From Hormiphora californensis (lineage: Eukaryota > Animalia > Ctenophora), in NCBI GenBank assembly GCA_020137815.1, contig CM035355.1, positions 1,798,001 to 1,862,000 on the forward strand: DNA of 64,000 nucleotides, given 5' to 3'. Both the position numbers and the translations under genes were made by a program. This document shows positions 15,854 to 54,724 of the stretch, piece by piece (position 1 is the stretch's first letter; every line of letters starts with the position of its first letter). Under the pieces are notes generated by a model. It was not told the DNA's origin. It ran no database searches and worked only from the letters and a program-made list of their open reading frames with translations.

Positions 15854-15898
<45 letters not shown>

Positions 15899-29345: not shown

Positions 29346-32300
29346 CTAACCAGATTTAACTTTGGTGATGCCATGTGAAACTGGCACGGCCTGTCCTTCC
29401 GCGTGGATTGCTGAGAAAACAAGTAGTGTGTGTTAGACATGGAGTCAGGGCGTAGGACGAATGTAGTGAAATGTAAGAGAGCAGTTGAATATTGAACAAT
29501 ATTTAGAAAAAGAGAGAAAAAGTGAGAAAAAGAGGGAGAAAAAGAGAGAGTTGAACTTACTCTCGTAGACAATGGTCATTGAACTTCCACTAGAACTTCC
29601 ACTGGTTCGGCTCATACCACCAGAGGTTTGCCTGCAACAGGGATTTACAGTTAGGTAAGCAATACAAGCTGACAGCAGTGAGATACTGCTTCAATAAAGT
29701 CTACTTTCATGATCAAAAGTGATCCTGAGAATCGAAATAAACGGGCATAATGAGTAGTAGGGGGTGAAGAATAAAAAGTTATTATGTTACCTTGGAGTTC
29801 CGCTGGGGTAGACCTTCTGTACAGTTTTGGATGTGTACCCGGTGTACCCTCCACCGTACATGGCGGGGTGTCGGAGTCCGGGGGCACCATCAGGTGGCAG
29901 GGGACCTGGGGAGAAAGGGTGGTGAGGAATTGGGGAAAAATAGGGACAGCTAAAATGGAATAATCATGTTTTGTAAACATGAACTTGTTCAATGATTCAC
30001 TGGTTTAACTTTTGATGCTCCTTTGTGGAAAGTGAAACGATTGTTCAATGTTCATGCAACTCACCCATATTCTCAAAGTGAACATTATCAATGGCAAGAT
30101 CAGTGAATGACCTCTCCTCTCCATGGGGGTTCTTGCACTGGTGACCCCTCACAGCCGATATCTTCAGAGTTAGCTTGGAGGAGGTGGCGATATAGTATCC
30201 CACCCTAACTGTATACCAAGGAGACATACTGGGATACTTGGATGGCAGGGGTATCATGGGAGAGAAGTGGACCTGAGATCCAAGTTGGACTCTGAATTGT
30301 CCACTGCAGTGTCCCCATTTGTAGAGTAGAGCCTGCTCGAATATAGCCACATACATGTAACCCTTTTGGAGGCCGGTGATTGGTGTAGATATCATCTTGA
30401 TGATGATGTTGTTACTGTTTAACCTCACAAAGGTTCCTCCACTCTTACTGTTCTTCAGGATGCTTGCTCCTTGGAGCGTTGTATCAGAGCTGAGAGTATC
30501 CGACCCTGGTCTTTACCAACGTTAGTCCATCCCTTTGGCACCTTGCCATTGTGATCATTGCTTGGTGCACCCGCTGTGAAACCACCGTTGGAAATCTTAG
30601 GAGCATCGTATGTCTCCTTGAGACGCGTCACAAATGTGAAACAGTCTGCCTTGACATTAGTTCCCTTGGTAATCCTCCTGCACTTCTTGGTCTTTTTAAC
30701 CTTGAGACACAGGTTGAAGAGTTTCTTGCCCCACTTGGTCTGGTAGCACTTCTTCCCAACTTCCACCTTCTTGGTCTTCCATTCACCGTACACTGTTTTA
30801 TCAGCTGCCTTGGGCATGGCAACTATCTTGAACTTTCAGGTTCTCTATTAGCAGTAGCGAGACACCTTGTGCTTGCAGTAGGTGTCAGTGGTACCCAGTC
30901 CACTCTCTGAAAGTAGGATGGAGGTAGGGAGGGGTTAGGAAGTGGTAAACACTTATAAAACGAATTGGATATTAGCATTGTATTGTAAAGTGGTAGCATC
31001 TAAATTTGGTGTATAATTGGAGTATGTAGTAAGAACTAAAACTCACTGAATTTGCGACAGAGCTGGAACTCAAATACAGTAATAGTTTCATCACTATCAC
31101 TGGCAGTGTAGAATGTGTTGATGTCCTTGCGGTGCTGGTGGTATGCAAAGTCATCCTTCCACGACTTGATCCACGCGTTATCTGATAGGAGGGGTGTGAA
31201 TTAATGCTGTAGTAGGAGTTTTAGTGGGATGTCAGGTAGATATCAGCCAATAAAACAGTTAGAATAATAACAACTGCTTGAGAAGTGAGAAACAAAAATT
31301 GAAGACAACTTACATTCATTGATGTCAATGTTAGTTTTAGTGATCGTTCCATAGATAAACCAGACAGAGGGATCGTATCTGAAGAGTCCGATCTGGTAGA
31401 AGTACCAACTGTGGGCAATGCTAACATCCATGTACTTGTTGTGCTCGAAACCTGACAGGAGAGGGTGTCAGATATCAGCTGAGGCGAGGAAGGAAATGGA
31501 TCTGGTAGTTTCGGAGAGGGGGGGGGGTTAAGTTCACCCGGTGAACTATCAAAGGGAAGATTATGACGCTCTGTCAGGCCAATGCTCTGACCGCTGTTGA
31601 CGCTGAATGATGGTACTAAATTACCTGATGGGTAGTCCCAGGATTTCCAATCCTTTGATTCCAGAACGTACTTAGTCTCAGATTTCTTGACGAACCGACG
31701 GATTTTGTAGGAGTAAAGTGATTGACAGTACTTCTTCTTTCCTCCATCTACAGGAATGACATGAGTAGAATTAGGGCTGAGTTAAAAATTGAAATTAAAT
31801 TACGCTCTCGAGGTGTTACTTTGTGTAAAAACTAAAGTAAAGACTTAAGACAGCTGGTTGTTAGTTAAAACTAACCGTAAGTCTTTTCCCAACACTTTTG
31901 TAGTCTTGACACATCCTTGTCGACAAACCAGCCCTCTGTCCTATCGGGCAGGGGGTACTCTGCCTCCTTTGTGGAGATGTAGTGGGCAAAGTCCTCTTTT
32001 TGGTAGAACTTCTTATCCAGAATGTAGAAACCTGGTAGATATATGGGTTAACACGCTGTAACCATGGTAACAGGAACTATCAGAAATACATGGTAACCAT
32101 GGTAACACTCACACTGTGGGCTGGTGTAGGCGGTGATCTTGGCACAGTTGAACCCTCCACTAACGATCTGTTTGCAGATCTTGTAGGAGTGAATGGTATG
32201 ACAGTATTTCTTACTCTTCTTCTTGTAGGTTACCTTCTTACACTCCTTCTTCGTGGTTATCTCTGTGGAGAGAGAGAGTTGGGGTTAACGGTGGTTAACG

Positions 32301-35300
32301 ATCGCAAGACTTGTCAAGGTTGCTCTTTAGATTGAACTTCTCGAAACGACAACGTTGTGATGCCAGACATGTGGTTGTGTTGTTCTTTGAAACGTTCATT
32401 GTTATGTTCTAACCCTCGGAGCTCGCGAAAAGGAGGTCGAGCTAGGCTTTCTATGATGTGACAAATAATGTCCCTATAAAACTGATAGTACGTACTATTG
32501 CCGATGAGAGAGAATCCGTAGTACTCATCCAGATCACATGCATCAGGGTATTTCTTACGGAAGTGGGCCACACCCGTCTCCTTGATTCCTGCTTCCCATT
32601 CCTTGTTCACTGGCTTGTGGTCCTAAGAGGGGGAGGTAGGAATGGTTAATGGGGGTGGGGGAGTGGTTAAGGGGGGGGGGGGGTGGTTAATGGGGGGGGG
32701 GGGTTTGAAAGTTGCTGATATTAAAATTGGGATGTTGTAGGTAGGATTTGAGAGGTGGAAAACTACTACGACTTGACCAAGATTATCCAAACTTCATCTC
32801 GACTTACCTTGAAGCAGGTGGGTCGTTTGAGTGTCTCAATTTCCTCACAACTCTTTAGATCAGTGGCCTTGCAAATCTTGGTCTTGTAGGTATCAGTACA
32901 GTAACTAAATTCATAACCTCCCTTGTTGCTGTTGTAGCACTTGGTAGACTTGACACTCATAACTCGTTGCTTGGAAAAGAGAGCGAGTTTTTAATAAACA
33001 AAGTTTCAACCCCGTCTCGACGTATTGCTCTGACCGTGGTTGAGAATAGGGTCAGATCAATGCTCTGACAGATTAAGGCGTTATGGTTACGGTAGTTATT
33101 GGTAACCATGGCAACTTCAGGTACCTGGTCATTGTAGGTGGAGCAACACTTGCTGCAGCAGTGGGTGAGGTTATCATACCCGAATCTGACATAACCCTTC
33201 TTCTTCTTACACGGAACCTGGTTGGGGGGGGGGTAGTTAATTGGGCAATTAATTGGACAATCAATTGAACAATTAAGAAATGTTGGACATGTCTGAGTAG
33301 TGCAAATATTTAGAATACCATGCATATCTTGATCTACCGAACCCTCACAGCAATAAAATGCGGTGTGAGCCAAACCATGCATACCTTGAGTTTTGGTAGT
33401 TCGGTATTCTTGATATCATATGCGAACACTTTGGTGTAGTAATCTTCCTCACTCATGTGTTTCAACTTGGTAGGCTGGTCCCAGGTGGTCAGAGTCTTAC
33501 ACTTGTTCTTTTTAGGCTGCGGAGGGGGGACGGTGTTACCATGGAGGAGGGTGGAGACAATGTGTGTTATCATCGACGAGTTTAGAGAAGATTAAAAACA
33601 ATGTGTTACCATGGAAACACGACTACTCACGTTGTCAAGGTGGAGTTTCTTGCACACTTTGTACACGTTCATGGCGTGACATCGCTTAGCAACCACATTT
33701 CCATATTTCTTGGTGAAACACTTCTCCTTTGTGGTGACGTCACCCAACACAGTCCAGCCTGGAGGGAACATTGCAGGTTAGAACTAATCCAGCAGCTGGA
33801 GGATTATTGTTTGAAAAAGGATAATTGTAGGCAGTAAAGTCGAATTTTTTAATCAAGGGACAGGGGGCTGCACATTCAGAGAGGTCGCACGTGACAATCG
33901 AGATCAAGTTCCTGACAATCTTAAAACTTGAACCTGGAACCGTTTGAAAGATAATTTTAAGACCTTTTCAACGCAACCAAAATCAAGTCTTTATCTTATC
34001 AGGAACAGGAGATATGAGCGAAAACGTTTAGCACACGCAAATCGACTTTTGTAAATGCGCGGCCCCCTGTCCCTTGATTAAAAAATTCGACTTTAGGATG
34101 GGGAGTATATATTCAGAGTATTTTAATCAGCAACAAATGAAAAATAGAAGAATTACCCGGAATAACTTTCCCTCGCTTACCATCGTATTTGTTCTTGTCC
34201 AGGGAGTTAACAGGGATAATCTTGGTCTTGATGAACGCCTCCCACTTGCTCTTCCAGAAAGTTAACTTGATCCTGACCCGTTTGAAACAGGTGGGGTAAC
34301 TCCAACTGGTGACATCCTTACATTTGAGGGCCTTGACCCCGTTATCCTTGGTGATGATCTTGCACACACTGTACTTGTAGAGATTGTGACACTTTTGTAG
34401 GGTAGCTGTACCCACCTGAGTAGAGAGAGAGGGGGAGATAAGGAGGGGTAGACCAGGGGTTTAGACGAGGGAATAGGGAGAAAGGTAGAGTAGTGGGGGG
34501 TTAGTGATGTGAGTTGGAATGATAAAGTAGGGGAGGTAGGTCGTAGGATATAGTAGGTCGTGGGATAGTTGTCGTGGGATAGTTGTCAGTGAAAATACTG
34601 TGCAGCCCAACTCTTTACCTTTTTCTGCCAGCACTTTTTCTCCTTCTTGATATCTCCGTAGACAAACCACTTCTTGTACTGTACACAGGGTGTTTTGTAC
34701 TTGGGTACTACCTTCTTCTGTAGGTACTTGGTGAATATCATCTTCCAGTGGTCTTCCAACTTGAACTGGGGGAACACTGGGAACAAGGGGGAGGGGGTTG
34801 GAGAGGGGGAGGGGAGTAGTGGGGGAACACTGGGAACAAGGGGGATGGGGTTAGAGAGGGGGAACTTGAAAAAAGAGGGATTACTGTCATGTCTTCCCCG
34901 CGAAGAGGGGGTAAACTAAAGTAAGGGACAGTAATGGTTCGCACGTAGAGAATTTAAATATTTTACTGCATCATAATTATGAATTGCAAACTGATTTAAT
35001 TACCCTTTGGCTCGTCCCAGGTGACCCTCTTTGCACAATCACTAGGCATCTCTTCAGCCAAGGTGGGCTTCACGCAGAGATCATACTTGTAGAGCTTGTG
35101 ACAGAGTTTAGCTTCCTTTTTACCGTACTTCTTAGAGAAACACTTCTCAACACGCTGAATTGCTGTGGGAGAGAGACATGTGTAAAACAAGGCTGGATTC
35201 GGTGGAAGAGAAATAAAAAGTCAATAATGGAGAGACATATCATTGGATTTCTTGACTTTCAGAGAGAATTAGAAACTTACATTCGACAATGACAACCCGT

Positions 35301-38300
35301 CCCTTATATTTCTTGGCGTCCATGCTGTACTGTGGTTTGATCTTCTTATCAATATACACAGCAAACTTCTCCTTCCAGAAACTGAGGGCCTTCTTCTGGT
35401 GTTTGCACCCCTTGGGGGCAGTCCAGGTTGTATACTCCTTACACACGATCTTGGGCACCTTGGTCTCTGCGATATGAGTGGGATATTAATGGTACATATC
35501 TCTTAAAAATATAACCTTTTTCTCGATAATAATGAGTCAAATAAACTGTTAAATATACAGATAAACTGTTAAAATGATGAGTAGGGCGTAGGCCAAGAGG
35601 TGATATACTTACTTTTGCTAGTTTTGCAAATCTTGTAGACATAGAGATTCTGACAGTGCTCGAAGGTGTACGTTCCATCCTTCTTGGCAACTGAAAAAAG
35701 GGGGTATTAGGGAACTGGAACATTGATTTGATTCGATAAGAGCGGTTGCCATGGGGACCCTACGCACGAGGGCCAATCACTGAAACATGACAGGGATATT
35801 AGCGAACTAAAACATGACAGGGAAACTAAAACTAACCGTATTCCTTCTTCCAGCACTTCTTCTTCCTGGTAATGGCCTGGTACACATAGTGATCTTTCGT
35901 ACAACTTCCCTTGCTATACGCATACTTTGGTGCCACACCACTCTTGACGTAGTGATCGAAGATCTTCTTCCACAGCGCCTTGGTATTGATTTGGGAGAAT
36001 GCTGGGAGGGAGAGAGAGGGTGTTAGCTAGCGAACCTTGGGTGCACCGGGGAAGAGAAGGTGTTAGTATAACGAACTGGGGGCGCTGTGAGGACTGGAGA
36101 GAGGGCGAGGGATATTATGGTACTGACACTGGCGCACAAACAATACAGTTTACCATAAACTGGTAGATTTGAAACACACACTATGACTCACAAAGAGACA
36201 AACAATCAATGACTCACAAACAGACAAACACTCAATAACTTACTGGTAGGTTTGTTCCAACTGGTAATCTTGACACACTTGTAGGTGACCTTTGTATTGG
36301 TACCAGTAGCCTTACACACCGTGTACACACTCAACTCGTGACACTTCTTGAAGATGTACTTCTTTTCTGTAGGAGGGGGGAGGGGTGTTACTTTATTTCT
36401 GTAGAAGGGGGATCAGTGGGGGGAGGGGTGTTACTTCTTTTCTGTAGGAGGGGGAGGGGTGTTACTTTATTTCTGTAGAAGGGGGATCAGTGGGGGGAGG
36501 GGTGTTACTTTATTTCTGTAGGAGAGGGGAGTGGGGTGTTACTTTATTTCTGTAGAAGGGGGAGTGGGGAGTGTTACTTCTTTTCTGTCGGAGAGGGGAG
36601 TGGGGATTTAGTTCATTTCTGTAGGGGGGAGTGGGGTGTTACTTTATTTCTGTAGGAGAGGGGAGTGGGGTGTTACTTTATTTCTGTAGAAGGGGGAGTG
36701 GGGTGTGTTACTTCTTTTCTGTAGAAGGGGGTTGTTAGGGTTTTTTTCTTCTTTTCTGTAGGAGGGGGTTGTTAGTTCTTTTCTGAAAGGGGGGGGGGTA
36801 TTACTATAGAAGCAGTAGCAAGGAAACACTCTGTTGGGCTAGTAGCGATTGCATGGGAGAGAAAGGGGTTGCTACCAATTAAAATTGATAAGTATGGCCA
36901 CCTTAGTCTGGATACGAATAAGGGATTGGAATGCTCCTTTTCTTTTAGAGCATACATTCAAATGTTCATATAGTTTTGGTAACTTTTTTCCGCCGACTCA
37001 ATAGCCAATTTCTTTCCATTAACTTCCTGTTTCTCTTACTCTCTCTATCCCCTCTCTCTCTATCTAACCCCCACCTCTATCTAACCCCCACCTCTCTCTA
37101 ACCCCTCTCTCTCACTCTCTCGTTTTCTTTCCGTGGTAGGTATCAGGGCTACGAAGGGCAACATGTGTGATGAGTAGTGCTCACTCCTCCTCACCACCGC
37201 CCCACCAACCCTCCTCTGAGAGGAGGTGTGCCTCCTCACTTATTTTGGGTAAAATCATGTTCGTCTTGTATCTCGTCCTTGTCCTGACCGGCGCCTTGGT
37301 TTCTGCCGGAGATACCGAATGTCATTGTCCAAGGGTAAGTTATTAATGTGGCTCCGCTTTGCCCTCAAGAAGAATATTAATTTGATACTGGGCTCCGCTT
37401 TATTTAGATCACTGGGCCGGATCATAGTGTGGTGTTTAACTCCCCTACTAATCTTTCAGGTGAATTCTGACTCGTGTGATATAAACACCGGTAGATTCAC
37501 ACTGCAGTGTCCGACTGGAAAACCGTTCATCAAGAAGGCATACTTCAAGGATTGTAATGATGAGATTCCGAGGATCTATGGTGTTGACTGCGTAGCAAGC
37601 AAGGCCGAGTGGGACAGTACTGCTGAATGCACTGCAACAACTGGACCGTGTAGGAAGGAAAAAGAAGTTCTTACCCACAAAGTACTTTAGAATGCGTGGG
37701 ACTGATATATTGTTGGTTATTTAACTATTAACTATTAAGTTATACAATCTTTTGTTGGACTTTAAATATATACGTGATATTGTGTGAGAATCTGTATTTT
37801 TGTAAAAAACGTGTTACATGATTTATTTCCCCCTAAAGGAAAAACAGTAAAATTGCTCTCCGTTTTTTGTGTACTATTTAGACCCTTCCTCTGTTATCCA
37901 AAAAGCTGCTGCTGTCCAGAAAGCTGCAGCTAGCAGGATTTGGACAAAAATGCTTGGACAGGCATGAAAATTGAAAGGTGACGTGAGAAGTGAGATTGAG
38001 ACTAACCGTAAGTTCTAGTCCAACACTTCTTCTCCTTCTTGATACCATCAGTGGTGAGGCCGTATCCGGCATACTTCTTGGCTGGGACAGGATACTTCGT
38101 GGAAATCTGTTTAATGACCATGTTGAACTTCTTTTGGTAATAAGCCTTTAGGTTGACCTTAGAGTAACCTGATGGAAAAGAAAGGGGTGTTAGGTTTGCG
38201 GGGGGGGGGGGGGGGGGTACCAACCTATTTTTTTGTATTTTTTTGTATTTTTTTGTACGGTCCGTACAAAAAATAACCAAAATTCCCTGCTTTTTCCGTA

Positions 38301-41300
38301 CAAAAAATACAAAAAAATACAAAAAATACAAAAAAATATACTGCTGAAGGGAACTTCTTTAGGGCCCCCTATAAGTCTCTAGAGGTTTGCGGGGTCCTTA
38401 TACTGGCCTGTATAGCCCTCTAGTTTCGTAGTACTCATAATCCCATGCTTTTTCCATGCGAACATTACCATGATTAAGTTATTCTAGACCTGAACTTGCT
38501 CCAAATCCTAGTTGGGTAACAGCAAAATATGTCGGGATAGTGCCCAAGCTTTATTTTCTGATGAAATTTCATTTTTCGGCCGAATATGCCTACTTATTCC
38601 CCCTCATGCCTGGAAAAAGGAGGCATAAGCAGGCCGAAAAACTGAAAAAGCCGAATCGGCCTCTCTCCCCCGGCCAGTTGTGCGCGCGCTACATTATATA
38701 CTCTCAAATCGCAGTCTATTCAGTTCCCCCATGGTGTAGTGGTTATCGCATATACTTGACACGCAGAAGGTCCCGGGTTCGAAACTCGCCTGGATCATTT
38801 TTTTCAAAACTTTTTAAATACTAACACTTGGTATAGCACTAAGTGTAAATCAATTAATTTCAAAAACTCGACCGTTTTTTAGACTATTAAATTAAAGTTC
38901 CACTATCTTGAACTATTATCAAACTAACTTAGACCACTGGAAAAAATCGGCCAAAATGGGGATAAATTTTGGCCATTCTCGGCCAAAAAATATGCTGGGA
39001 CACCGGGTTAGTAAGACTTGTTCTAGTTAGGAGTCGTGGGGACGGGGAATGGTAAAATAAACTAAATAAACACTCTAGAGGCCTTTAAAGGCCAATAGAA
39101 GGACCTCGAGCGCCTCTAGAGACCTGTAGAAGGCACCAAAGAAGTTCCCGACAGCAGTAAACTTTTTTGTATTTTTTTGTATTTTTTTGTATTTTTTGTA
39201 CGGACCGTACAAAAAAATATTGCCTGCTTTTTCCGTACATCCGTACACAAAAATGGTTGATACCCCCCCGGTTTGCGCTGTCTCCTGCACACCTCGAAAG
39301 TCGAAACTTATTTCAGAATGTATAGCGTGAGAACGAGTCTGGTGCACGCAGGGTTTGAGTAACTTTGGGAGGGTTACTCAAGTAAAGTTAGTTACTTCTT
39401 TAAGGTAAACTTACACTTAGGTTTGGTGTAGGAACTGAGTGTTGTGCACTTCATGGTAATCTCAGTTTTACCAGTCGACACCTTACACACAGTGAACTTG
39501 TACATCTTACCACAGAAATTAACAGTATGACCTGAAGTAGAAATATATATATACATGTATATGGTAATATATGGTAAAATCCTGTAAATTTGTAGAGGGG
39601 ACAGGGAAAAGTGGTTAAATCATGTTGTTGAGTAATCAGGAGAAAAAATGTTTTTGAGGGGAGTGTTTAAGTGGTTATATTGGACACGTGGGAAATGATC
39701 AAGAGAGGTGTGGTTAAGAGTGAAATAGTGGGAGGGATGGTAAAGAGGTAATATTGCCTCTTTACTATCCAGTATCCCTCCCACTCATATGAGTTATTGA
39801 GTTACACGGTTGAAGACATGGGAAATCTTTTGGGCTCCCTGGGATTAATGAGAGGAAATAGACACGCTATATTTTATGAAAACATAACCTATCCATTGGG
39901 AGCGCCCCCATAAAAAAGTCGCTTGGCAAATTCCCTCGTCGCTCGGCAATTGGTTCGGCAACAACAGGTGGTTTGCCGAGCCAGTCGCTCGGCTAATCAA
40001 GGAAGTCTCCGTGATTTCACCGCGTTCTTACAGAAAAAGCACATTTTTTTAGCACTTTGTATTTTTCAGCAGGAGATTTTGAAAAAAAGTGCTGAAAAAA
40101 TGTACTTTTTCTGTAAGAACGCGGTGAAAACACGGCGACTTCCTTGATTAGCCGAGCGACTGGCTCGGCAAACCACCTGTTGTTGCCGAACCAATTGCCG
40201 AGCGACGAGGGAATTTGCCAAGCGACTTTTTTATGGGGGCGCCCACATGTGGACAATTGGGACATTCTAAACCCAGATCCCACCTTTACTATAACAGTTT
40301 ACGACTGGTTTGGTAAATCAACTATTGCTATTGATCATAACATAAAACGTACCCATTGGATCCTTCTTCCAACACTTTTTAACAGTTGAAATATCTCCCT
40401 TTAGCTTATATCCCTTGTACTTCTTGCACTGAAATGAAAGGTTAAAGTAGGTCTCATATGGATTGAAGTATTACGCATTTTTGAACGCACGTGTAAACAT
40501 CTACGTACCTGGGGAGTGTACTTCTCGGTGAGATACTTCACAAAGTTCTTAGTATACATGGCCTTTAGGTTTGTCTTTCCGAGGCAGTTCAGCTTAGTAG
40601 AGGTGGTCAGCTTCTTGCACTTCATCACCTGCTTTCCTGTAATTAGGGGTTAGGATGGTATTGGGGGTTCATTAATACTGGGGATCGTTTTAGGATTCGG
40701 AGCAGGAGTGTGGACTGACGAAGCATTTGAAATGAATGCATTTTAGTAAGGGCCACTAAGTCAGTAAGCATGCAAGATATGAGCATGGTAAGATTCGTTA
40801 CTTTATCTAGGAGAGAGAGCAGGTTCACTAGGCCCTTGTTTACCGCAGACTGACTTAGTGGCCTCATTTAGTAGGAATTCTCAAAACATCATTCTGACCT
40901 ACTAAATTCCATATCATATGATTGCTTGCTAAACTAATTTAAAAAGGGCTCTGATTGAAATCACTTACCCTTGACGGTGCTGATAGTACACAGGTTGTAA
41001 GTGTACAAGGTTGACACATTTCTGGAACTTGACCTTGTTTCCATAACTCTTGGCATAGCACTTCTCTTTGGTTTTAACCGCTCCGTTGATCGTGTACTTC
41101 TTTTTCTTCCAGGTAGCACACTGGATGGAATAAATGTGTGTAAATAGGGAGGCAAGGGCTAAATGTGGAATTTCGCTAGCCCATAAAAGGGATGGGAGTA
41201 AAAGCTACGGAGCTAATGAGTACATGGCGATGGTACAGGTTATTGTGTTTGTTACCTTGGTAACAGTTCATGTGTTTGTTTGTTACCTTGGTGATGAACT

Positions 41301-44300
41301 TCTTGGTTGTCTTGGTGAACCAGATGTTAAACTTCTTCTTGAGCCCACTCTTCATATCCAGTTTCTTGAAGCAGCCGGGCTTGTCCCAAGTCGTGGCCTT
41401 GACGCACTTGGTCATCAGTGTATCACCTGTTATAATGGAAGTGGGATAAGTTAATCTACAGATTACAGAGTAAAGAATGCCCGAGCTGTTTGCCGCAGCT
41501 AACTCACACCACAAGGTGACATGATATTGTCTGTTGGTTACTATTGGTTAATGGTTACTTTTGATTACTACTGAACCATGTTCTACATCATGTACCTTTG
41601 TCGATGACCTTGCACACGGTGAAGTTGTGAAGAGCATGACACTTGCTGAAGGAGTACTGCTCACCATAAGCCTTCTTCCAGCACTTATCTTCCTTGGTGA
41701 TAGCCCCCTTACTAAAGGAGAGAGAAATAAGGTTAAGTATTATTAGTCGTTTCCATAGCCATTGGCCACAATGATTTCCATGGTAACAGCAGAAACGGTA
41801 ACCATAGCAATGTATGCACTTACAGCTTGTAGCCCTTGTACTTGGTGCAGACACTGGGATACTTTTTCTTGATGGACGCGTAGTATTTGTTCCAGGCCTT
41901 GGTAAACATGAGTTTCTCGTTGGGCTTGTGTAGACACTTGGGTGCGGTCCAAGAGAAACACTGCTGACACTTCAACTTGTATGCTGTTGAGGAATGAGGG
42001 GGTAGGGGGTGTCGTATTGTGGGGGGGGGGGCAATAGTGATGCTAGACTGTAACAAATTTTATGTAATATTTAGTTTGGAGTTACTAATAAGAAGTTACT
42101 ACTTACTCTTGTCAGGCATGATGTAGGAAATGGTTTTGGGTTTACACCGAACAACCTTCGTGTCCTTGGAATAGTCAGCCTTGTACGCCTTCCTCTTCTT
42201 CTTCTTCCTCCTACGCCTCTTCTTCCTCTTTCCCTTACCACGCCTCCTCCTACGTCGCCTCCTCCTTCGCCTTCTACGTCGCCTCCTTCGGCCCTTTCTC
42301 CGCCTTCTTCGGCCCTTTCTTCGCCTTCTTCGGCCCTTTCTTCCCCTCCTTCGGCCCTTTCTTCCCCTCCTTCGGCCCTTTCTCCGCCTTCTTCGGCCCT
42401 TTCTTCCCCTTCTTCGGCCCTTTCTTCGTCTCCTTCCCTTACCCTTCCTTCTCCTTCTTCCCTTACCCTTTCGTCGTCTTCTTCTTCCCTTACCCTTCCT
42501 TCGTCTCCTTCCCTTACCCTTTCTTCGTCTTCTTCTTCCCTTACCCTTCCTTCGCCTTCCTCGACCCCTCCTTCGCCTTCCTCGACCCCTCCTTCGCCTT
42601 CCTCGACCCCTTCTTCGTCGTCTCCGTCTCTCAACCTCGGCAAGGTCTGCCTCCAGTTCGGAGAGCATCTCAACCTCGCCAGGTGCATCCTCAACGGGAG
42701 AGAAGAGATCTCTCTTTGCCAAGTTAACCATCTGAGAAACTGCCGCTTGCTGCTGCTGCTGCTGCAGGTTACACTTAGTCCACGGGAGCACGGGGAAATA
42801 ACCCTCTGAAGAGAAATATATCGCTCTTAGATTCTTGGAATTTGGATATGAAATCAAGAATTCTATGAAATATTAAAATAATTCCGTTAAATTGAATTTC
42901 GATGATATTACTGTTAGGTATTAACGTACTTGGTCGAGGGCAGATATTATAGGTGTACATTTTGTGGCACACTTGAATTTGGGAGCCTCCGATTTTATTG
43001 GCACAAGTTTTTGTGTAGCACTTTTTCACCTGGGAAGCACCTGGAGCAGAAACAAGAATTAAACATGACTGTTGTAACCATGGTAACACAGGGGTAACAT
43101 AGCAACACACAACTCAACTTACATCCTTGGACAAAGTGAGTCTTGTCCTTCTTGCACAGAGGCTTCAGCTTGTTTTTCACAGATGCAGTACACTTAGCCT
43201 TCAGTTTCTTAGTGAGCTTGAACACAGGTTCCTTGACCACAACGAACTTCTTGTAGCCTGATAATAGAGAATGGATTTGAATCAGCAGAAGTATTCCGCC
43301 ATGGCAAATGTAGAATAAATGAATTTGTCGTCATGGTTACCTGTTGGCTTGTAAGTGGTGTAAACTTCACTACATTTCTCATCAAGATCGCACATAGTGA
43401 CCGTGTAGACGAGCTCAGCAGAACTAGCAATTCCGGAACATTTCTTCTTCTTTTTCCCCTTACTCACAGATTTCACCTAGTAAATAAAGGAATTGTTGGA
43501 AATTGTGTTCTGTACACTGGCCAAAACAAAATGTGATTGTCAAAGACGAATTCAAAACGATTTGGAGAACTTATTAACCTGATATTCATCAGCGGGGCGG
43601 TAGAGTTTCAAATACTTCTGGTCACGTTTCACCATCATAATGGAAATATGCTTGTTCCTTCCTTCAAATGCCAGGGCTGCAAAGAGAAGAAAATGTTTAT
43701 AAAGGAGCACATTTCATCACTTTGCGAAAATTACCTTTAGGGAAGGAAGATGATATGGTTTTGTAACAATCCTCGCTGATCTCCTTTCCCTTCAGTTTGC
43801 AGGTCTCATAACGATACCAACAAACACACTTCTTCTTGCCTCCACATTTCTCCTTGATGGTACTCACAACGACGTACTGTTTGGCATTCAAGTAGGCTGC
43901 AGAAAGAGGGAGGGTTTAGAAAATAAGGAATTTAGAAAACAGGAAATTTAGAAAATAGGGAATTTAGAAAACTGAATTTAGTCACAGTCGTTTTAAAGGA
44001 ATTAATCTACATATATCTCACCCAAATCAGTTCGTTTGCTGTAAACTATCTTAGTGTTTCCACTCTTCTTGTTCACAAAAGTGTGCTTTATGTAGTCTTT
44101 AGCGTTCTTGGCCTTGCAGTCAGCTTTTTCTGAAAAGATGTAACCATGGCCCCTCTTTTGAAGGAAGACTCAATAAATTTCGGCCAGTGAATAGATCGGG
44201 ATAATTGCAACGATAATTATCAGGAAACAAAGACATTCCGTCGTTCCATTGCATACAAACTTGGTCTAATCGATTATCGAGACCCTATAACCATTGCCTT

Positions 44301-47300
44301 AGTCCACAACATATGCAGAGTTTTTTCATAGTCCTTTCAACTTTATTTGAAAAGAATGTCTAGGACTAATAACCGTGACGCCGCCCCATGTGGCCCATGT
44401 TTGTGTACTTACTGGCAGTGGGTTTCTGGTGGCACAGCATGGCGTCCGTTTTGGCCTTTAACTTCCACGACTTGAGCGAGTACTTCTTCGCTAGGAGCTT
44501 CGGCTTCACAATGGTGACATATTTCCTGAAGTAGACAAATATTGGTGAATTCAGGAAGCGGCAAGCATCTCCGACTGAAGAGTCGAGTGGAAGAAAAGAA
44601 GCGTGCCTGCTATTTTACAAAGAAAGGTATCAGTAAGATTAACTTACGCGTAAGGAATCTCATCAGCAGTCATTAGGTTCATGTTGCTGGAGATTATCAT
44701 GGGTTTCTTGATTCCATAAAGACCGACGGGAGTGAATCCAGTCTTCACCTTTTTACATGGTTTCTTTCCTCCCTTGCACACCTTGAACGTGTAGATCTTG
44801 ATGGTTTTCCTGTTCTTGTATTCGCCCACGGCACTACAGTACTTTGTACGGCCCTTGCGAACCCCTGAAACAGAAAAGTGTGATTGTTGAATAGTACCGG
44901 AATGACCCGAGGAAAACTGAGAAGATTAGCAGAGGTTTTTTGGAAAAGGATAGTTAGTTTGATGAATCTCAATGAACTTACATCCGGTTGCTTTCCATTT
45001 TTTCTTGTTGTACTTGGTGGTGATGTAAGATTTCTTACTGTATATCATGATCTCGTTGATCTTTGCAGACTTGCCCTTGTACGCAAAAGCTGAATGGGGG
45101 GTAAATTAGTTTAATTGAAACTTACTATTAAATTGAAATCGTTATTTTAAATGTTGTTTGTATAGGTTTTTCCCATCCGTATCCGTGGAAATCTAACAAG
45201 AACATGTACCTTTAGGGAAAGTACTATCAATGGCCTTGACACAGTATTTTGCACTCTGGCAAGCCTTATATCGGTACCAGCAGACACATTTGTTTTTCTT
45301 GATCTTGCATTTCTTCACCACCTTTCCAGCGATGTACCACTTCTTCGTTGGAGTGAGGTGCGCTGGGAGAATACGAGGTTGTTAGGGAAATCCGTCAAAA
45401 TGGTGGAAATTTCAGCGGAATTACATGAGAGAAAAAGAGATGATATTCTAAAGAATTCAATTTAATGAGTGTGGGTGAGGAAGGGATAAAGTGACGGGGA
45501 AGTCAGGGTGGAGTTAAGTAGCATAATGGTTAGGTGGGGGTTATAATTCATATTATAATGCAACTGTCAACTTTAGAGAAGAGAGATAGATACTAGATAG
45601 TAGAAAGGAGAGTACTTTTAGATGAAGCTTCTTCTTAATTTAGCAATGTGTGTGTCAGCGAAGAACAAATTTTATGATTAGGTGGCAGAAGTAAGTGAAG
45701 CTCGAGAGATAGATGAAGCTTTTCTTCTTAAAAACTGTTAATCTGTCTTAATTTGCTTAATATATGATTGGATTGGATAGTTTTAATAAAATATGATAAT
45801 GTAAAATATGCTTATGTTAATGTACTCACATGATGGAACACGTTTCACGTAGACCGTCGAACATTTCTTGGTGTTTTTGTTGAGGCACATTTTCAGCGAA
45901 TAATAGTCCTGTCTATTTTTATCCTGACACTTTTTCTTCTCTGAAAAGAGGGATGGTTCAATGGTATACTTCTAATTTTAACTTAAACTATATATATTTC
46001 ATCAACTTATTTGGTAGCTTACTTTTTGGGAGCTTTTTGATCTTGCAAATCGTCGCGGGTGATATTTCTGAAACGGTATATTTTTAGAAGCTGCTACGTT
46101 CAACCAACGTAGGTGCTGCCACACCTTTTTGTAGATTATCTTTGTCTCAACCCTTTCAAAGATGTCCTTCCTTCCCTACCCCACCTCCATGTTATGATAC
46201 TTTTGCTAATTACTATTTATAAAGTCAAATTCAACCATTTTGAACTCACTTCCTTTGATAGTGTATTTTGAGAGGGGGTACTTGACAGCCATTTCCTTCG
46301 GAGAGTAGATGTAGTTCTTAACCGCGGGTCGGTAGGGGAATCCTTCCAAACTTGTCTTCATTAGAATCACCTTAACCTTCTTCACCTTGTACGCTAGATT
46401 TGTTCAGGTGTTAGTTTTTGCCTTAACACACTTACTTTTTTCGAAGGTATGATTATTGTTCGTTTTGAGCTCTGGTTTGAGTCGGTTTGCAGGGTTCAAC
46501 ACGGGGCCTGGCTCTGCCAAACAGTGTGTAACTGAGTATATTGCCTTACTTGGTGGTTTGTACTTGGTGACCCAAACTTTGCAGAATTTCCCATTGCTCT
46601 TGCAGATCTTGTATCTCCATTTTCCTTTCTTCGTCTTTCTCAACTCTGTAAATGAGGGCGGTCAAATTCAAAATCTCACCGTGATTCATCTTTTTTAATT
46701 CTCTCCTGCTCTCCTCTCCCTGAATCTCTAAATACAACTCGTAAACCGCACAACGTCACGACAATTTCTTTGTCTCCCTCTCTTTCTTTCACTCTCTCTC
46801 TTTCACTCTCTCTCTCGCCCTCTCGTTGTCTAGCATCTTTTCTCACACAGCCAAGATTGTAATAACCATCATTTGGAATGTAAAACGTCTATAATGATTG
46901 CTTTTTAGTTCCACTATGGTACCTGTCTTTCTGTACTTGACTCTCTCGTTTGGTTTGGATTGATCAAACCAGAGAGAGAGAGAGAGAGAGCAAGAGATAG
47001 AGATTTAAATCACTATACCTATGATATCTCTCATTACATTGTCTCTCTTTATCTCTCTTTATCTATACCTCTCTGTCTCCCTACCCTCCCATCTGTCTAT
47101 CTCCCTCTCATTTTCAGTATACGTACTTCCTTTGCGGACATAGACGTTCTTGTCGTATTTCAGGATCATATACCGAACATGATGACGCACCATTTGGTCC
47201 GTGATCTGCTTTGTAGTTCCCTTGTACTCCAGATCTGCAATCAAAGAAGTTGTTAGGTAGAGGAGTGTTTGAAATGTTGATATAAATTTAACAAAAGTAG

Positions 47301-50300
47301 TCGCGGTTATATTCCCTAAAATTAGGTATAAATTACCGTAGGGGAAAGCACGGGACTTTGTAGTAAAGCAGGAGGAGAGCTTCTTGGCATTGCAAGCGGT
47401 GAACTTCCAGAAGCATCGGCCTCCTCTTCCACCACGTCGTCTTTTACCACCCTTCCTTCGTCTTCCCTTTCTTCTCCTTCGTTTTCCCTTCCTGCGTCGT
47501 CCTTTGCCCCTTCGACGTCTTCCCTTCCTGCGACGTCCTTTGCCCCTTCGACGTCTCCTTCGACGTCCTTTCCTTCCACGTCTCCTTCGACGTCCTTTCC
47601 TTCCACGTCTCCTTCGACGTCGCCCTTTGCCCCTTCCACGTCTCCTTCGACGACCTTTCCTTCCGCGCCTCCTTCGTCGTCCTTTCCTTCCACGTCTCCT
47701 TCGACGACCTTTCCTTCCACGCCTCCTTCGACGTCCTTTCCTTCCACCCCTCCTTCGTCGTCCTTTCCTTCCACGCCTCCTTCGTCGCCCCTTCTTTCCA
47801 CGCCTGCCCTTACCTCTCCTTCCACGCCTACCCTTGCGACACTTCCGTACAATAGCTGAAAATTGGTTGAAACATCATCTCCTGGAAACTACAATTCGAC
47901 ATTAAACAGCAGCTAGATCTATTACCATTACTCGCCCCTTTTACCCCCTTCTACCCTACTCACTCGACTTGACGACATAGCTTTTCCTTGGTTTCATATG
48001 AGAGTAAGGGATAACTCGGGTGTAGACGACAGTGGTTTTCTTCCCCTTCACGAGGGTAACCTTGTAGAACTTCCGGACACGGGCCTTGGCACAATTCTTC
48101 TTTTTGGTGATAGGTTTACCAGCACAGACCTTGGAGTCTTCCATTTCTGGGGAAGGGGAGGGTTACATTAGTTGAAAATATATGGGCGTTGTAATTCTGA
48201 ATGTGTATAATCTAAAGTATCTTTGCTTATAAAGGGATTGCTGGTAAAGCGCTCGACAGGATCAAGATTCTGGAGCTGATTACAAAGTAATACAAGGTTT
48301 TTCAATCGATTGAAAAACCTTGTATTACTTTATAATCTAAAGTATGTAATTAAAAGAATAATATACTTTTGATTGTGTGTGTAGGATATTTCTTGAGGAA
48401 TCGCCTCCATCCAATAATCTTGATGGTAGACCTGTAAATATGAAGTAAAAATATCTAAAACATCTACGACCATCTCATAAATGAACTCGACCGTACTAAT
48501 TTGCCAATGAGATAATAACGCCGGGAATTGAAATCTAATAACCAGCAATGAACTTTCATATCTTCCTCTCAGATATATCCTATTGCTTGAAGTTCATTTG
48601 TCTCAATTACTATCTTTATTTATTGATCTCCCATCTTCTATTTACCGGTATGGAAGTCCATCCAGTGACTTCTTGTAGTAAACCGCCTTGAAGCCCTTGT
48701 AGCCAGTAGGCATGTAGTAAGTTCGGAATTTTCGACAAACCTGTAGGAGATGGGTTAAATTGTTATTATTAGATCTGGAAAAATAAGCGCATTCAAGTGC
48801 GTCATACTATATGTGTCGATGTGGTATTTTATATTGTTGTTACTAATTCCCGTCGCTGTTTCCAATTCCACTCTACTTAATTGATACAAGAAAGTTGGGA
48901 ACATCTAATTATTGGTAACTGTCGTATTATTGGCTGGTAGAACATGTGAACTTGCATTTCTATTGTCACTCAGTTCCACAACTACTACCGGCACTTGCAC
49001 ACAGACACAACTGTCTTACCTTCTTGTTTTTGGCACTGCACAACTTGAAAACCCAGAGCTTTTTGACACGTTTTGGTTTTCCGACCAGGCGCCATTTCAC
49101 AGGATCGTATTTTCTGTGCAGGTACTGGATGTCATATCGGATCATGCGCATTGTGATCGTTTTAGCACCTCCTGAGAATACAGTGATTTTAGAAAGAAAC
49201 ACCAATATTATTGTTAACCCATGAAGGCAAACTAATCCATTGTACAAAATGGCTAGTTATTGAAATTAGTTTTCTTACCAACGAATTTCATTCCCTTGGG
49301 GAACTTTCTGGAGCTAGACCGAGCGCAGTTGGTCCACTTTTTACCCTTCTTCTTGCAAACACGGTACTCGAATCTGATTGAAGGGTTAAAAAACGATTAA
49401 TCAATAAGCCCTTAATCTTTGCATAAAACATAATTTAAACACCATGTATTAATTAATTATTGTTAAAAATAGCTTTGTTACCTGCACTTCTTCTTGCCCC
49501 GCTTCTTTCTGCATCGTGTGCGAATCCTGCCACGGAGCCGGAAGTTCTTTCGAGGTCGGAAGTAACCGAAGGGAATGCCACGAAGGTAGATGGTGACCTT
49601 TTTCTTTGTCTTCGTGTTGAAGAGCACCACTCGGTAGAGCTTGACCACCTTTTTACATTTCGCCTTTTTGGTGCGAGCCTTACCCTTACAAGCCTTGATG
49701 AGTTTCCAGGTTTTGACCCTCCAGATTTTGACCTTGTAGGTACGTCTCGCCTTGGCTTGGGAGAAGATGCGAAGAGTACTTGTGTAGTACAGACCACCAG
49801 CACTCTTTTTGCGAAGCACCTTCTTCTGCCACCTCTTGAAGTCACTAGAGGGAGGGAAACCGATTGAAAATGATCACATTAGGGAGTTTAAAACATAATT
49901 TGCAAATGGCAGTTACACGTATATCAGGTAAGAAAAATACACAACCGCTGATTTACCGATAAAGGCTGAAGCTGTGCCACTTGGCAGCTCCACTAAAGTT
50001 GACATGAGTGATCTTCTTAAATCCAATTCTGTGTCTGTAGGCCGGTTTGGTGACGTGAATTCCGTTCACCACAACGTTAAATCCTCGCTTCAAGTTTCGA
50101 ACAGTGAATGAAAAGTAGGGTTTCTTGGTCTTGAAAGGCCACCTCTTGGGTCTGTACTCCCTTCCCCATCCTCCCTTCTTCGTATTCATCACGATTTGTC
50201 CCCTACCAGCAGGCCTAAAGTCCAGGTGGAACGCAATCTGGAAAATTGACGAACTGTTGGAACTAGCCGGATAACTTAAAAGTAGCATTTCAAAATGTAA

Positions 50301-53300
50301 AAGCACTGAAAGCAGTATGCCAAAGGAAGTTAAACTTACATGTTTTCCCGCCCAAAAGTTCATGGTCCACTTCTTCCTGTTACTGGTACTTTGACCAGTG
50401 ACGACCATGAAATCTTGTAGCCTGATCTTGCCCTTGAAGGCATACTTCTTCCCGATGGTCATGCTCCTCAGACTCATAACGGAGGATCTGAAGTGCCTGA
50501 ACCAGCGAGCACGAGCAGCCTTTCCAAGACCGTTGAACCGATACCCGGTCAACAGCTTGAGAGCGATCTTGTGTTTGAACACGGTATAACGGGCTCCGTT
50601 GATGGTTATGTAGTATCCGATCTTGGCAACTTCAATCAGAATGGCGTATCGGTTACCACGGCCAACAGGGGGATATGGTCCAGTTACCTTGGAAACCATT
50701 TTACCTCCCTTGTAGGCACTAAACAGGACTGTTCCTGACGCTCCCCTTCTGAAATATTAAAGTAAGTAAGTAGCTGCACATTTTCCAATTTCCACATGGA
50801 AATTTGAAGTATTAGGAATTTAAACAGTAAGGAACTCACGCCTTGATTGTGATGCGAAGTCCCTCAACTCCCTTTCCTCGGATGGAGAAGATGAAAGTTC
50901 CAACCATGAAGCGACCAAAGAAGAGGAAGGTATCTCCCTGCTTGATCCCTTCCGCAAACTTGTACACTTTTCCATCGACAGGCTTCTTGTTCACAGGGTC
51001 TATTGGGGTAATTTTAGTTAACGAATGAGTTGGATGCTGTTATACTAGTAGTACTACCTTGGCCTGGTAAGTTTGATAGTAGTGCGGGGTACAGAGCTAA
51101 TCAGTAAGTTTTACTTACACATTCGGTATTTGACGGTGTAAGTGAAGATGTTGGTCAACACCGCCCACTCTTTCTTGGAAATAACTCCATAGGAGACGGT
51201 TGCTTTGAGCCATGAAACTTCACCACTGGGACTCTTCTTGGCCTTCCTTCCCCTTCTAAGGGTGTACTTCCTCCTTCCCCTTCGTTTTGCTTCATATGTA
51301 ACTCCACCGCAATCTATTAAAGTGTTTGAACTGTCTAAATCTTGTCTAAAACCTCATCAAAAGACGAAATTTCGATCATAATAAATGTTGGTCTAATAAC
51401 AAATTTGTGTCTTAAACTTACTAGGTCGGCGATTACAGACTCGAATGGCCTTGTTGAGCCTAACGAAGCCCCGTCTTCCTCGTCTACCATTGTAGCCACC
51501 AAGATACATGCCCTTGTGTAGGGTGTACCCCTTGACGGCCTTGAAGGAAACCTTGGCTGCTGATCGCTTTCCCTTTCCTCCAGCAAGGGGTGACATCCAT
51601 ATAATGTGCTTGCTGTTTCGTCCGTATACCTTCATTCCATTCACATCGATCTGTGCCAAACGTCCAGGAACGTTAACCCACCGTTTACCGGTTGGGAACT
51701 TGCGGCTCACTTGGGTTCGGTAGTAGATCTTGTCAATCTTGTTGACACCAACCACAATACCCCATCCGGAGGCGATCCATTTGAGGGCACCGGGGATTCT
51801 CACCCACTGAAATCATCGGAAATATTTAGATACTGGTATAGCAAAATAATCTGCCTAGCTCTGAAGGGAGCGCTATCTCGTTTGACATGTTCCTTGTCTG
51901 TCAGCTTACGCGAGCCCGAACAGACAGACTGCGTAGCATGGCAACCTAGCGTGGGGCCGTTAAACCAGAAATTAGAAATGGTCGAGGCACACGCCAGACA
52001 GCTCAGAAATAACGGTAACTATTAGGCACTAAAAAGCCTACCTTCTTTCCGCGCCTGTTTTTGTCTCCGTAAGTTCCAACTCGGTAGTAAATGTGGTGAG
52101 CCTTGTTGACAACCCAAACACCAGCACCGCCCACAGAGATCTGAATGGCAGCTCCTCCTACCCTCATCCACTTTCTCTTTTTATGATGCCGTTTGTAAAT
52201 TGCCATACCTTTGTTCACTCCCCAAACTCGGTTAAACTCACTCACTTCAATCTAGGATTAGATCGGGTTCAGTATGTAGAGACTAAAGACCAACTGGACA
52301 CTAAATAATATCTCTTAGCTTTTTCGAAAATTAAAATCTCTCAAACTGTGATTCTTCACTCTACCTACAGGCTACATCACTGATTTACCTTGACGAGTTT
52401 TCCTGCAATCCGTTTCCACTTGTGACCACCTAGCCAGCGGTAAATGTTCATCTGTCGGTTACAACCCCAAACCATGCTACCACCGACAGCGACGTGGGTC
52501 AGCTTGCCCTTGATCCGTTGCCACTTCTTCTTTCCTCTCCAGCGGTAGATGTTGTCGCTCTTGTTGACACCCCATAGACCCATTCCACCGAAGGATACAA
52601 CAACAAGACGACCGGGAAGACGTCTCCATTTGGCGGTAATGCGAAGAGAACCTAGAATGTTGATAGCGATTTAATTAGCTTAGTCTTAGTTTCGGTAATG
52701 TTTTGAAAGTCTACTACTCTACCTCTCCAGTATCGAACTCTGAGCCATGAGTTTTCACCACTTGGACTCTTCTTGGGTTTACGTCCCTTTCGGAGTGTAA
52801 ACTTCCTCTTGCTCTTGCTCTTTCTCTCCCAGGTGATACCTCCACAGTCTGAAAGGCGTGGTAGTTGTGAAATAGTTGTTAAAAGTGTATGATATGTTTG
52901 CATAATGATTATGTTGCATAACATGCAATCAAGTATGCAGTTGTGGGGCGTCAGTTTCACTTCCTGGACCTCTTACCTTTCCTTTTCCGGCAAGCCCGGG
53001 CGGCAGGTCTGAGGCGACGGAAGGCGATTCTTCTCCCTCCGGCGTACCCTCCAAGATACTTTCCTTTGTAGAAGCGGTATCCCCTAACCCACCTCCTCCT
53101 CCTTCGCCTTCTCTTTCGCCTACCCTTCCTACGACGACCCCTCCTTCGCCTTCCTCGACCCCTCCTTCGCCTTCCTCGACCCCTCCTTCGCCTTCCTCGA
53201 CCCCTCCTTCGCCTACCACGACCTCTCCTTCGCCTACCACGACGGCCTCTGCCTCTGGGTGGGCCTGGAGGTCCAGGAGGTCCCGGGGGACCGGGTGGGC

Positions 53301-53931
53301 CAGGAGGTCCCGGTGGGCCTTCGGGTGGGCCTGGAGGTCCAGGAGGTCCTGGGGGACCGGGTGGGCCTTCGGGTGGGCCTGGAGGTCCAGGAGGTTCTGG
53401 GGGACCGGGTGGGCCTGGAGGTCCAGGGGGACCGGGAGGACCACCGGGACCATCATCAGGTGGACCGGGTGGGTGCTCTGATCGCTTAGCTAGCTCGACT
53501 AGCTCTGAAGGGAGCGCTATCTCATTTTCTTCAAATGTAGAATCTGGAGCTGGATTCAAATTGAGAACGTCGGCATCGAACACATCTGGGGAAATACAAG
53601 ACCCATTTGATACAATAAAAACGTTTGGATTTACAGCAATATTTATGAAGGAGCACAAGTTTGTTTATGAAGGAGCACAGTATCTAACTTTCGAACCTTT
53701 GTCAGTGATGGAAATAACTGAACTTTCCGCATAGCCACCGATAAAAAGGCACACGTATCTGGAAATAAATGCCGCAAAGGTTAACACAAATGAGAAAAAT
53801 CAAAATCAACAACCATGCCAGCTACTTCTTTTGTAAAGGAACCGTAGCTCCGACTGAAATCCAAGATTTGTAATCTAATGGTTATACCGCACTTACAATG
53901 TTAAAATAAAAAGTTTATTCCGTTGCCTCAT
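29346..53931 (-). CDS. Giant secreted cationic multidomain precursor (~3,500 aa, ~50 exons): collagen-like, protamine-like, tectonin, galectin, Lys/Cys repeats, CBM-like; carries three frame lesions in the 3' half
   Basis: Hand-spliced exons, in phase at the junctions checked. Exons 53931-53897, 53758-53697 and 53585-52977 give MRQRNKLFILTLYVCLFIGGYAESS...ELVELAKR-SEHPPGPP. The join across 42930/42806 is in phase. The last exon ends HGITKVKSG* at 29346. Confidence 0.75.
33835..34095. mobile_element. MITE with ~40-bp TIRs
   Basis: TAAAGTCGAATTTTTTAATCAAGGGACAGGGGGC ... GCCCCCTGTCCCTTGATTAAAAAATTCGACTTTA; internal segment resembles an element in an IQCK intron (~4285-4500). Confidence 0.8.
36345..36790. 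repeat. Intronic minisatellite (~35-40 bp) built from a duplicated splice acceptor
   Basis: Repeated TTCTGTAGAAGGGGGAGTGGGGTGTTACTTTAT; on the minus strand each unit contains C-rich tract-CTACAG|AAA, copying the true acceptor at ~36367. Confidence 0.8.
37257..37690 (+). CDS. Nested antisense gene: 102-aa secreted protein with 8 Cys (exons 37257-37334, 37460-37690)
   Basis: MFVLYLVLVLTGALVSA signal peptide; AGG|GTAAGT donor and TTTCAG|GTG acceptor in phase 0; lies in an intron of the giant minus-strand gene. Confidence 0.8.
38201..39269. mobile_element. Non-autonomous DNA transposon with G/C-tailed TIRs and 8-bp TSD (GGTTTGCG), carrying a tRNA-like sequence
   Basis: GGTTTGCG at 38193-38200 and 39270-39277; ends GGGGGGGTACCAACC / GGTTGATACCCCCCC; subterminal (TTTTTTGTA)n and GTACGG(T/A)CCGTAC palindromes. 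Confidence 0.8.
38723..38797 (+). pseudogene. Degenerate tRNA-Val(GAC)-like sequence
   Basis: A box TGGTGTAGTGG, B box GGTTCGAAAC, anticodon loop TTGACAC and downstream T7 terminator; anticodon and acceptor stems are mismatched. Confidence 0.65.
39902..40242. mobile_element. Foldback MITE, near-perfect palindrome with ~155-bp arms
   Basis: GCGCCCCCATAAAAAAGTCGCTTGGCAAATTCCCTCG... is mirrored by ...CGAGGGAATTTGCCAAGCGACTTTTTTATGGGGGCGC. Confidence 0.88.
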
Positions 53932-54559: not shown

Positions 54560-54724
54560 CAGTCGGACCCCGATTTACAGGAACCGGATGAACTTCCCCC
54601 GATATAGGAAATTAACAGTATTTGACCCAGATATACCGGGCACCCTGATTTACTAGGCAAAACCTTTCTATTTCTTATCCCCCCCCCCGGCCACCGAGCA
54701 TCCTGGTAAATTGGGGTCCGACTG
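54560..54724. mobile_element. Tc1/mariner-type MITE
   Basis: CAGTCGGACCCCGATTTAC ... GTAAATTGGGGTCCGACTG followed by TA. Confidence 0.8.

Follow-up and report, generated by a model that had tools for sequence, protein, structure and literature searches.

We analysed a 64,000-nucleotide window of the genome of the ctenophore Hormiphora californensis (assembly GCA_020137815.1, contig CM035355.1, positions 1,798,001 to 1,862,000) and found that a short Gly-Pro-Pro (GPP) segment, followed at once by a polyarginine tract, lies in exon 3 of a minus-strand gene for a giant, strongly basic protein with several lectin domains. The inclusion of this exon in mRNA, the order of the domains, the composition of the chain and the homology of its tectonin and galectin domains were observed directly, and charge, not collagen, is the dominant property of the protein. 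In our preferred reading, to which we give a probability of roughly 0.4, this cationic multi-lectin is a likely secreted protein that is probably cut at two LAKR sites and probably serves as an adhesive, forming condensates with polyanions; granules of the tentacle or of colloblasts are the most plausible site.

A GPP segment and an arginine tract in one transcribed exon

A preliminary description of this region had reported a (Gly-Pro-Pro)n segment with EPP and EG interruptions, fused directly to an arginine-rich tract. We recovered exactly 20 GPP triplets on the minus strand, laid out as one isolated triplet followed by Gly-X-Y runs of six (one GPG and five GPP), two, five and seven. The interruptions are likewise real: in one triplet Glu replaces Gly without loss of register (EPP), and at two places a single Glu is inserted. 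The arginine tract adjoins the segment without a spacer, and both lie in a single exon bounded by AG and GT. The tract starts at residue 143 (position 53256) and is 55 residues long, of which 40 are Arg, 13 Gly and 2 Lys. One minus-strand frame carries 22 of the 28 GPP tripeptides found across the six frames of the 64 kb, and the hexapeptide GPPGPP occurs 15 times in the exon 3 frame versus 0 times in the other five frames of the window. Clustering of GPP in one frame is thus far beyond chance.

The exon had been placed with its start at 53480, which proved wrong: exon 3 is a minus-strand exon that begins at 53585. The span first described makes up most of it and falls within an open frame at 53664-52957 (minus). 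In its first 104 nucleotides, exon 3 codes for the last part of an acidic propeptide, with LAKR (53482) as the final residues, and its last 112 nucleotides begin a two-cysteine module. We assigned transcription to the minus strand because the spliced introns read CT..AC on the plus strand; free third codon positions cannot tell the strands apart, their register being common to both. The plus-strand readings over the same bases, a (GGP)n and a mucin-like Pro/Ser/Thr tract, and the other two minus-strand frames were ruled out by splice orientation and exon phase. A stretch of about 20 bases in the part of exon 3 that codes for the propeptide (53495-53520) recurs in intron 6 (51855-51880). The 5' part of the gene comprises the following features.

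53897..53931, minus: coding part of exon 1, with the start codon and the first half of the predicted signal peptide; junction 53897/53758 in three of the four RNA runs.
53697..53758, minus: exon 2, with the rest of the predicted signal peptide and the start of the acidic propeptide; from a hydropathy scan and RNA junctions.
52977..53585, minus: exon 3, 609 nucleotides, phase 1 at both ends, the exon with the GPP segment.
53482..53585, minus: last part of the acidic propeptide, which as a whole covers residues 25-67 with a net charge of -7 and ends in LAKR.
53257..53473, minus: collagen-like segment with 20 GPP triplets, runs of 6, 2, 5 and 7, three Glu interruptions and no Cys.
53092..53256, minus: polyarginine tract 1, residues 143-197, with a 21-nucleotide repeat unit.

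Of five public RNA runs listed, four, all of mixed-plankton contigs mostly 90-95% identical to the genome, were compared over 40300-54700; no contig spans the gene, and at this identity the contigs stem from other individuals or close relatives. The preliminary description had left room for an exon that is absent from mRNA, but contigs of related animals splice exon 3 to its neighbours. The upstream junction was present in contigs of three of the four runs and the downstream junction in one of the four; in a second run, unaligned letters match the end of the exon. One contig of run X3 covers 53177-53346 and so bridges the boundary between the GPP segment and the arginine tract, and run X1 had no cover over the repeat. 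All four repeat-length differences of known size in exon 3 (-81, -39, +3 and -3 nucleotides) preserve the frame; they may reflect polymorphism or assembly collapse.

The gene runs on the minus strand from an ATG at 53931 and appears to end at about 29350, which gives some 63 exons and a protein of roughly 3,800 residues; a further in-frame ATG lies at 53943. From the ATG at 53931 the frame stays open over 2,426 codons, with GT-AG at every modelled intron, and the modelled protein has at least 3,423 residues, reaching about 30860, and appears to run on past two more frame breaks to about 29350. The model places 39 introns between 40300 and 54700, and an RNA joint is listed for at least 23 of them. 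Among the RNA base differences listed (40 of 188 and 40 of 153), 79 of the 80 are exonic in the model; third codon positions account for 59 (p 7e-14) and synonymous changes for 61, and one of the 80 lies in exon 3. Apparent small indel errors break the frame at 41009, about 30860 and about 30510 (minus), and in automated annotation of this assembly the gene would be split. Near 41009 the cause appears to be a one-base assembly error, the base being absent from the RNA contigs. Upstream of the gene, at 54530-54700, lies a short interspersed repeat, probably a small mobile element, which many RNA contigs match with unlike flanks.

Architecture and composition of the protein

A hydropathy scan predicts a signal peptide at residues 1-24, the most hydrophobic stretch of the whole chain; after the N-terminus, 19-residue windows stay at or below 1.3. 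The acidic propeptide (residues 25-67) ends in the first LAKR (residues 64-67), likely a convertase site judging from the sequence. Next come the GPP segment, polyarginine tract 1, a two-cysteine module, the tectonin domain and a second cysteine module, followed by two galectin domains, Lys/Tyr/Cys repeats, polyarginine tract 2 and further repeats. The later part of the chain holds a poly-Gln stretch, a second LAKR, an acidic stretch, polyarginine tract 3 and about 11-12 more Lys/Tyr/Cys repeats. Features beyond exon 3 are as follows.

52733..53088, minus: two-cysteine module of about 75 residues, copy 1, interrupted by an intron and sharing 59% identity with copy 2.
51588..52628, minus: tectonin domain, six blades over three exons; PF19193 above cut-off in all three exons, six blade motifs.
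51204..51539, minus: two-cysteine module, copy 2, from self-comparison.
50484..50997, minus: galectin-fold domain 1; PF00337 at 23.2 bits versus a cut-off of 22.1.
49959..50456, minus: galectin domain 2; PF00337 at E 1.6e-22.
42930..49844, minus: middle Lys/Tyr/Cys-rich region with at least four diverged repeats, broken by polyarginine tract 2; from self-comparison, no matched family.
47416..47838, minus: polyarginine tract 2, 141 residues of Arg, Gly and Lys; both flanking junctions in RNA.
42711..42722, minus: second LAKR, after poly-Gln and before a 25-residue acidic stretch.
42189..42629, minus: polyarginine tract 3, 147 residues; 64 bases identical with tract 1.
30640..41983, minus: about 11-12 copies of a Lys/Tyr/Cys repeat of about 95-100 residues, from self-comparison.
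29350..30640, minus: provisional C-terminal domain and last exons, from a three-frame reading; apparent frame breaks near 30860 and 30510.

Lys makes up 17.8% and Arg 11.1% of the residues (29% together), against 5.4% Asp plus Glu; Tyr accounts for 5.9% and Cys for 3.4%. The net charge is +803 and the isoelectric point 10.7. From the second 100-residue block onward every block is net positive, and acidic patches are confined to the stretches before the first LAKR and after the second. The GPP segment, in turn, amounts to 2% of the chain. The 64 bases shared by tracts 1 (53205) and 3 (42611) correspond to three 21-nucleotide units and lie 10 kb apart, which suggests a recent duplication or gene conversion. 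The label "protamine-like" in the preliminary description stands for composition only: protamines are small nuclear proteins without a signal peptide, whereas tract 1 is internal to a giant chain with a hydrophobic N-terminus and a predicted signal peptide, and two longer such tracts follow it.

Lectin domains had been expected downstream of the GPP segment, and they exist. The tectonin domain matches tectonin 2 (5fsb, E 4.6e-27) and is homologous also to fish-egg lectin and lectin L6-like proteins. These relatives share a domain with six repeats; here it is strongly basic (21.5% Lys plus Arg versus 12% in a starfish lectin L6-like protein) and sits within a giant chain. The two galectin domains are homologous to those of the tandem galectins (galectin-8/-9), with the difference that the first is degenerate and both lie behind a predicted signal peptide. 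Domain 1 has degenerate sugar-site motifs and is 21% identical to domain 2. The latter, aligned to galectin-8, shows one Asn-to-Asp change but retains His, Arg, Asn, Trp and Glu, and by sequence reads as a near-canonical galectin. For the halves of the two-cysteine module, which may resemble PAN/apple modules, Pfam and PDB gave no match and ESM Atlas returned unrelated bacterial clusters. The core of the C-terminal Lys/Tyr/Cys repeat was modelled as three beta-strands (predicted local distance difference test, pLDDT, 83); Foldseek returned nothing for it at E<=0.001, and a PDB sequence search nothing convincing. The provisional C-terminal domain had no informative match in Pfam or PDB.

The tectonin homology bears on two other readings of the protein. 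In one, it would act in innate defence: the lectins would bind microbial glycans, a convertase would free membrane-permeabilising Arg-rich peptides, and the GPP segment would trimerise as in defence collagens. The kinship with fungal tectonin 2, fish-egg lectin and lectin L6-like proteins fits such a role, as does the finding that 79 of the 83 R-x-[KR]-R motifs lie inside the Arg tracts, although in poly-Arg such R-x-R-R motifs are inevitable. An acidic propeptide ahead of a cationic product is also the layout of defensins and cathelicidins. More than 2,000 residues of Lys/Tyr/Cys repeats, however, resemble bulk material rather than a peptide precursor, the chain lacks a neck or cysteine-rich oligomerisation domain, and we consider a defence role unlikely. 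In the other, the protein would belong to a reproductive extracellular structure, such as an egg envelope, a jelly coat or the cortical granules. Here the relative of interest is fish-egg lectin, and secreted Cys- and Tyr-rich proteins of variable repeat length are common in egg coats, but no ZP or similar domain was found in the exons scanned, and this reading strikes us as improbable.

Comparison with collagen and lectin families

The protein misses a defining feature of each of the families it recalls, namely collectins, ficolins, nematogalectins, minicollagens, protamines and collagen IV. The collectin, ficolin or nematogalectin design put forward at the outset was not supported: the GPP segment has no flanking Cys and no neck, the first lectin lies about 145 residues away, and 42 positive charges per chain come right after the segment. 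Like collectins, among them mannose-binding lectin (MBL), and ficolins, the chain carries a short, interrupted collagen N-terminal to recognition domains, and the collagen of MBL is comparably short and interrupted (PMC9898670). Unlike them, it has 0 Cys in residues 25-199, so that an N-terminal Cys-rich region is missing, and 55 Arg, Gly and Lys residues directly after the GPP segment take the place of a coiled-coil neck. Pfam searches, exon by exon, gave no C-type lectin or fibrinogen head in exons 3-12, only tectonin and galectin; later exons were partly scanned. A collectin-like trimer mainly for the multivalent display of lectin heads and poly-Arg, as first modelled, could draw on 20 GPP triplets at the mature N-terminus and lectins downstream. 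Against it stand the absent Cys-rich region, neck and heads, the long charged connection to the first lectin and the more than 3,200 residues that follow, which leave it little probability.

The lectin of nematogalectins is of the SUEL type, another family. Cnidarian nematogalectins share with this protein a signal peptide (here by hydropathy), a Gly-X-Y domain and a sugar-binding domain, in a gelatinous predator (PMC4619090). Their lectin follows the collagen at the C-terminus (PMC4619090), whereas here poly-Arg, a Cys module and tectonin intervene. The galectins are internal, at about residues 630-910 of more than 3,400, some 490 residues past the GPP segment and with more than 2,500 residues behind them. 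Cnidarian minicollagens offer a signal peptide, a propeptide ending in KR and a short Gly-X-Y core (PMC7981951). The present chain differs in having no Cys within 80 residues on either side of the GPP segment, an interrupted core, a propeptide of 43 residues versus 4-20 (PMC7981951), and about 20 times the length. From collagen IV and spongin it differs in having no long collagenous domain, the three Gly-X-Y runs of at least five triplets being the sole ones in the minus frames of the gene; no NC1 domain was matched in the exons scanned. Collagen IV is reported as the sole collagen identified in ctenophores (PMC5395295; bioRxiv 10.64898/2026.02.02.702917).

Whether the GPP segment trimerises is a question on which the evidence is evenly divided. 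GPP is a triplet prone to triple helix, and the segment would sit at the free mature N-terminus after the LAKR cut. Pfam Collagen scored it at 21.2 bits, under the cut-off of 27.2; its PDB matches were compositional, and ESM Atlas returned generic collagen matches at 0.76. Model peptides (PPG)10 and (POG)10, O being hydroxyproline, melt at 33 C and 64 C, respectively (PMC9898670), or at 41 C and 61 C (PMC12862961). One interruption brings (POG)10 down from 64 to 32 C, and peptides interrupted once are still able to fold at 21-32 C (PMC9898670). Several features weigh against this step: three interruptions with a longest perfect run of seven triplets, the absence of a cysteine knot, neck or registration domain to set the register, 42 positive charges per chain directly downstream, and one RNA contig that is about nine triplets shorter in the segment, be this real or an assembly collapse. 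A single-chain model of exon 3 (predicted template-modelling score 0.28) drew poly-Arg as one long helix and was uninformative on trimers. A helix would likely need both hydroxylation and a polyanion as counter-ion. Given these, we put at about even odds a short, kinked, hydroxyproline-dependent triple helix that would tie three chain tips; otherwise the segment would serve as a stiff polyproline-II spacer.

A candidate adhesive, its relatives and its neighbours

The confinement of acidic patches to the neighbourhood of the two LAKR sites points to processing of a precursor in secretory granules. In the adhesive reading that we prefer, the predicted signal peptide would send the chain to such granules, where a convertase would remove the acidic propeptide and split the rest into residues 68-2049 and 2050 onward. 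In each product, poly-Arg would come after a short N-terminal leader, acidic or rich in proline. Electrostatic binding to sulfated or acidic polymers and anionic surfaces would fall to the Arg tracts and the Lys-rich repeats, and tectonin and galectin 2 would contribute glycan recognition. The Cys and Tyr contents could permit disulfide or catechol cross-links; catechols have been reported in colloblasts. Mussel foot proteins and sandcastle-worm cement proteins are secreted, as this protein likely is, and they too are repetitive and rich in Lys/Arg and Tyr; its folded lectin domains and giant size set it apart from them.

Signal peptides and lectin domains are over-represented among published colloblast candidates, and the adhesive itself is described as unidentified (PMC6278862). 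One of them, Mnemiopsis ML020113a, resembles our protein in its large size (2,242 residues), a signal peptide, a TECPR propeller near residues 400-520 and then a galectin domain, a likeness in annotation, from 60 of 75 supplement rows (PMC6278862). Ctenophores also produce sulfated galactans and mannans (bioRxiv 10.64898/2026.02.02.702917), which would be suitable polyanion partners.

Other observations count against an adhesive role. Unlike what might be looked for in a cationic marine adhesive, Tyr-Lys adjacency shows no excess (72 versus 65.6 expected by chance, p 0.18). ML020113a carries bulb lectin, fucolectin, EGF and Ig domains after its propeller and no collagen annotation, and shares a single large cross-phylum orthogroup with other candidates (PMC6278862). 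Colloblast candidates are not enriched for low-complexity sequence, and the supplement is without collagen annotation (PMC6278862). The RNA, moreover, comes from the diverged plankton contigs described above, and no orthologue was found in the protein database searches or the metagenome scan. A more specific version, in which the protein would be the core colloblast-glue polyprotein (about 3,800 residues), cut into lectin polycations, trimerised by a hydroxylated mini-collagen and set with sulfated polysaccharide, is in our view doubtful.

The same polysaccharides open another possibility, a cross-linker of mesoglea or mucus. It would hold together the sulfated galactans or mannans of the animal itself through counter-ion binding, and galectin 2 would anchor it to galactose. 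In the published description, mucins and sulfated polysaccharides joined by non-covalent counter-ionic bonds make up the mesoglea (bioRxiv 10.64898/2026.02.02.702917), and a protein with a net charge of +803 and a galectin domain would suit such a matrix. Yet the same source describes a liquid-like gel with weak bonds, and its main text has 0 matches for "lectin", "lysine" or "arginine" and, in the part available, mentions no such protein (bioRxiv 10.64898/2026.02.02.702917). We regard this role as unlikely.

The two protein searches covered chains of up to 2,000 residues, so that a full-length orthologue could not show up. Within that range, none of 1,011 candidates passed as an orthologue with the galectin query, and 2 of 28 passed with the tectonin query, both distant tectonins. 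A metagenome scan yielded one locus from 97 pattern matches, which was rejected because by eye it resembles a bacterial gene for a penicillin-binding-like protein. Public ctenophore proteomes are likely to contain an orthologue that is not annotated. Titles and abstract openings in the literature, with subscription journals outside the coverage, gave no description of this protein and nothing on ctenophores together with collagen and Gly-Pro-Pro. Provisionally, then, the protein appears undescribed and akin to secreted collagen/lectin and cationic matrix proteins.

Elsewhere in the window, we noted a DDT-domain chromatin gene of BPTF/BAZ-like type (130-3500, minus; PF02791), a ubiquitin C-terminal hydrolase gene (13000-18050, minus; PF00443; USP36/42-like by eye), a TECR-like enoyl-CoA reductase gene (20000-23000, minus; weak PF21696 match) and a pyridoxal phosphate-dependent enzyme gene (61246-64000, plus; serine/threonine dehydratase-like by eye; weak PF00291). 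PRPF39 (25000-28500, minus) has an acidic, Pro/Thr/Glu-rich insertion near 26500-26900; the best matches of one of its exons reach 80-89%, one 89% cluster including Mnemiopsis leidyi KAL5254772.1, with named bilaterians at 52-63%, which by itself places the window in a ctenophore. A separate short open frame at 23730-23950 (minus) has a hydrophobic stretch and no Pfam match, and an intronless frame of 275 residues at 6367-7194 (plus) looks by eye like a seven-transmembrane receptor, with no Pfam match and no exact database match. About 4 kb at 8000-12000 are nearly free of CpG (4 and 3 per 2 kb versus about 50 elsewhere).

If the GPP segment is triple-helical, ctenophores would have put collagen to use a second time, apparently independently, in a non-type-IV form that parallels the minicollagens of nematocysts. 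The layout of signal peptide, propeptide ending in KR and short collagen would then be a convergence on that of cnidarian nematocyst proteins. If it is not, what remains is an unusual, likely secreted polycation in which two types of Cys repeat are uncharacterised. As a transcribed giant polycationic multi-lectin with a short GPP segment, the protein is a concrete candidate for the colloblast adhesive.

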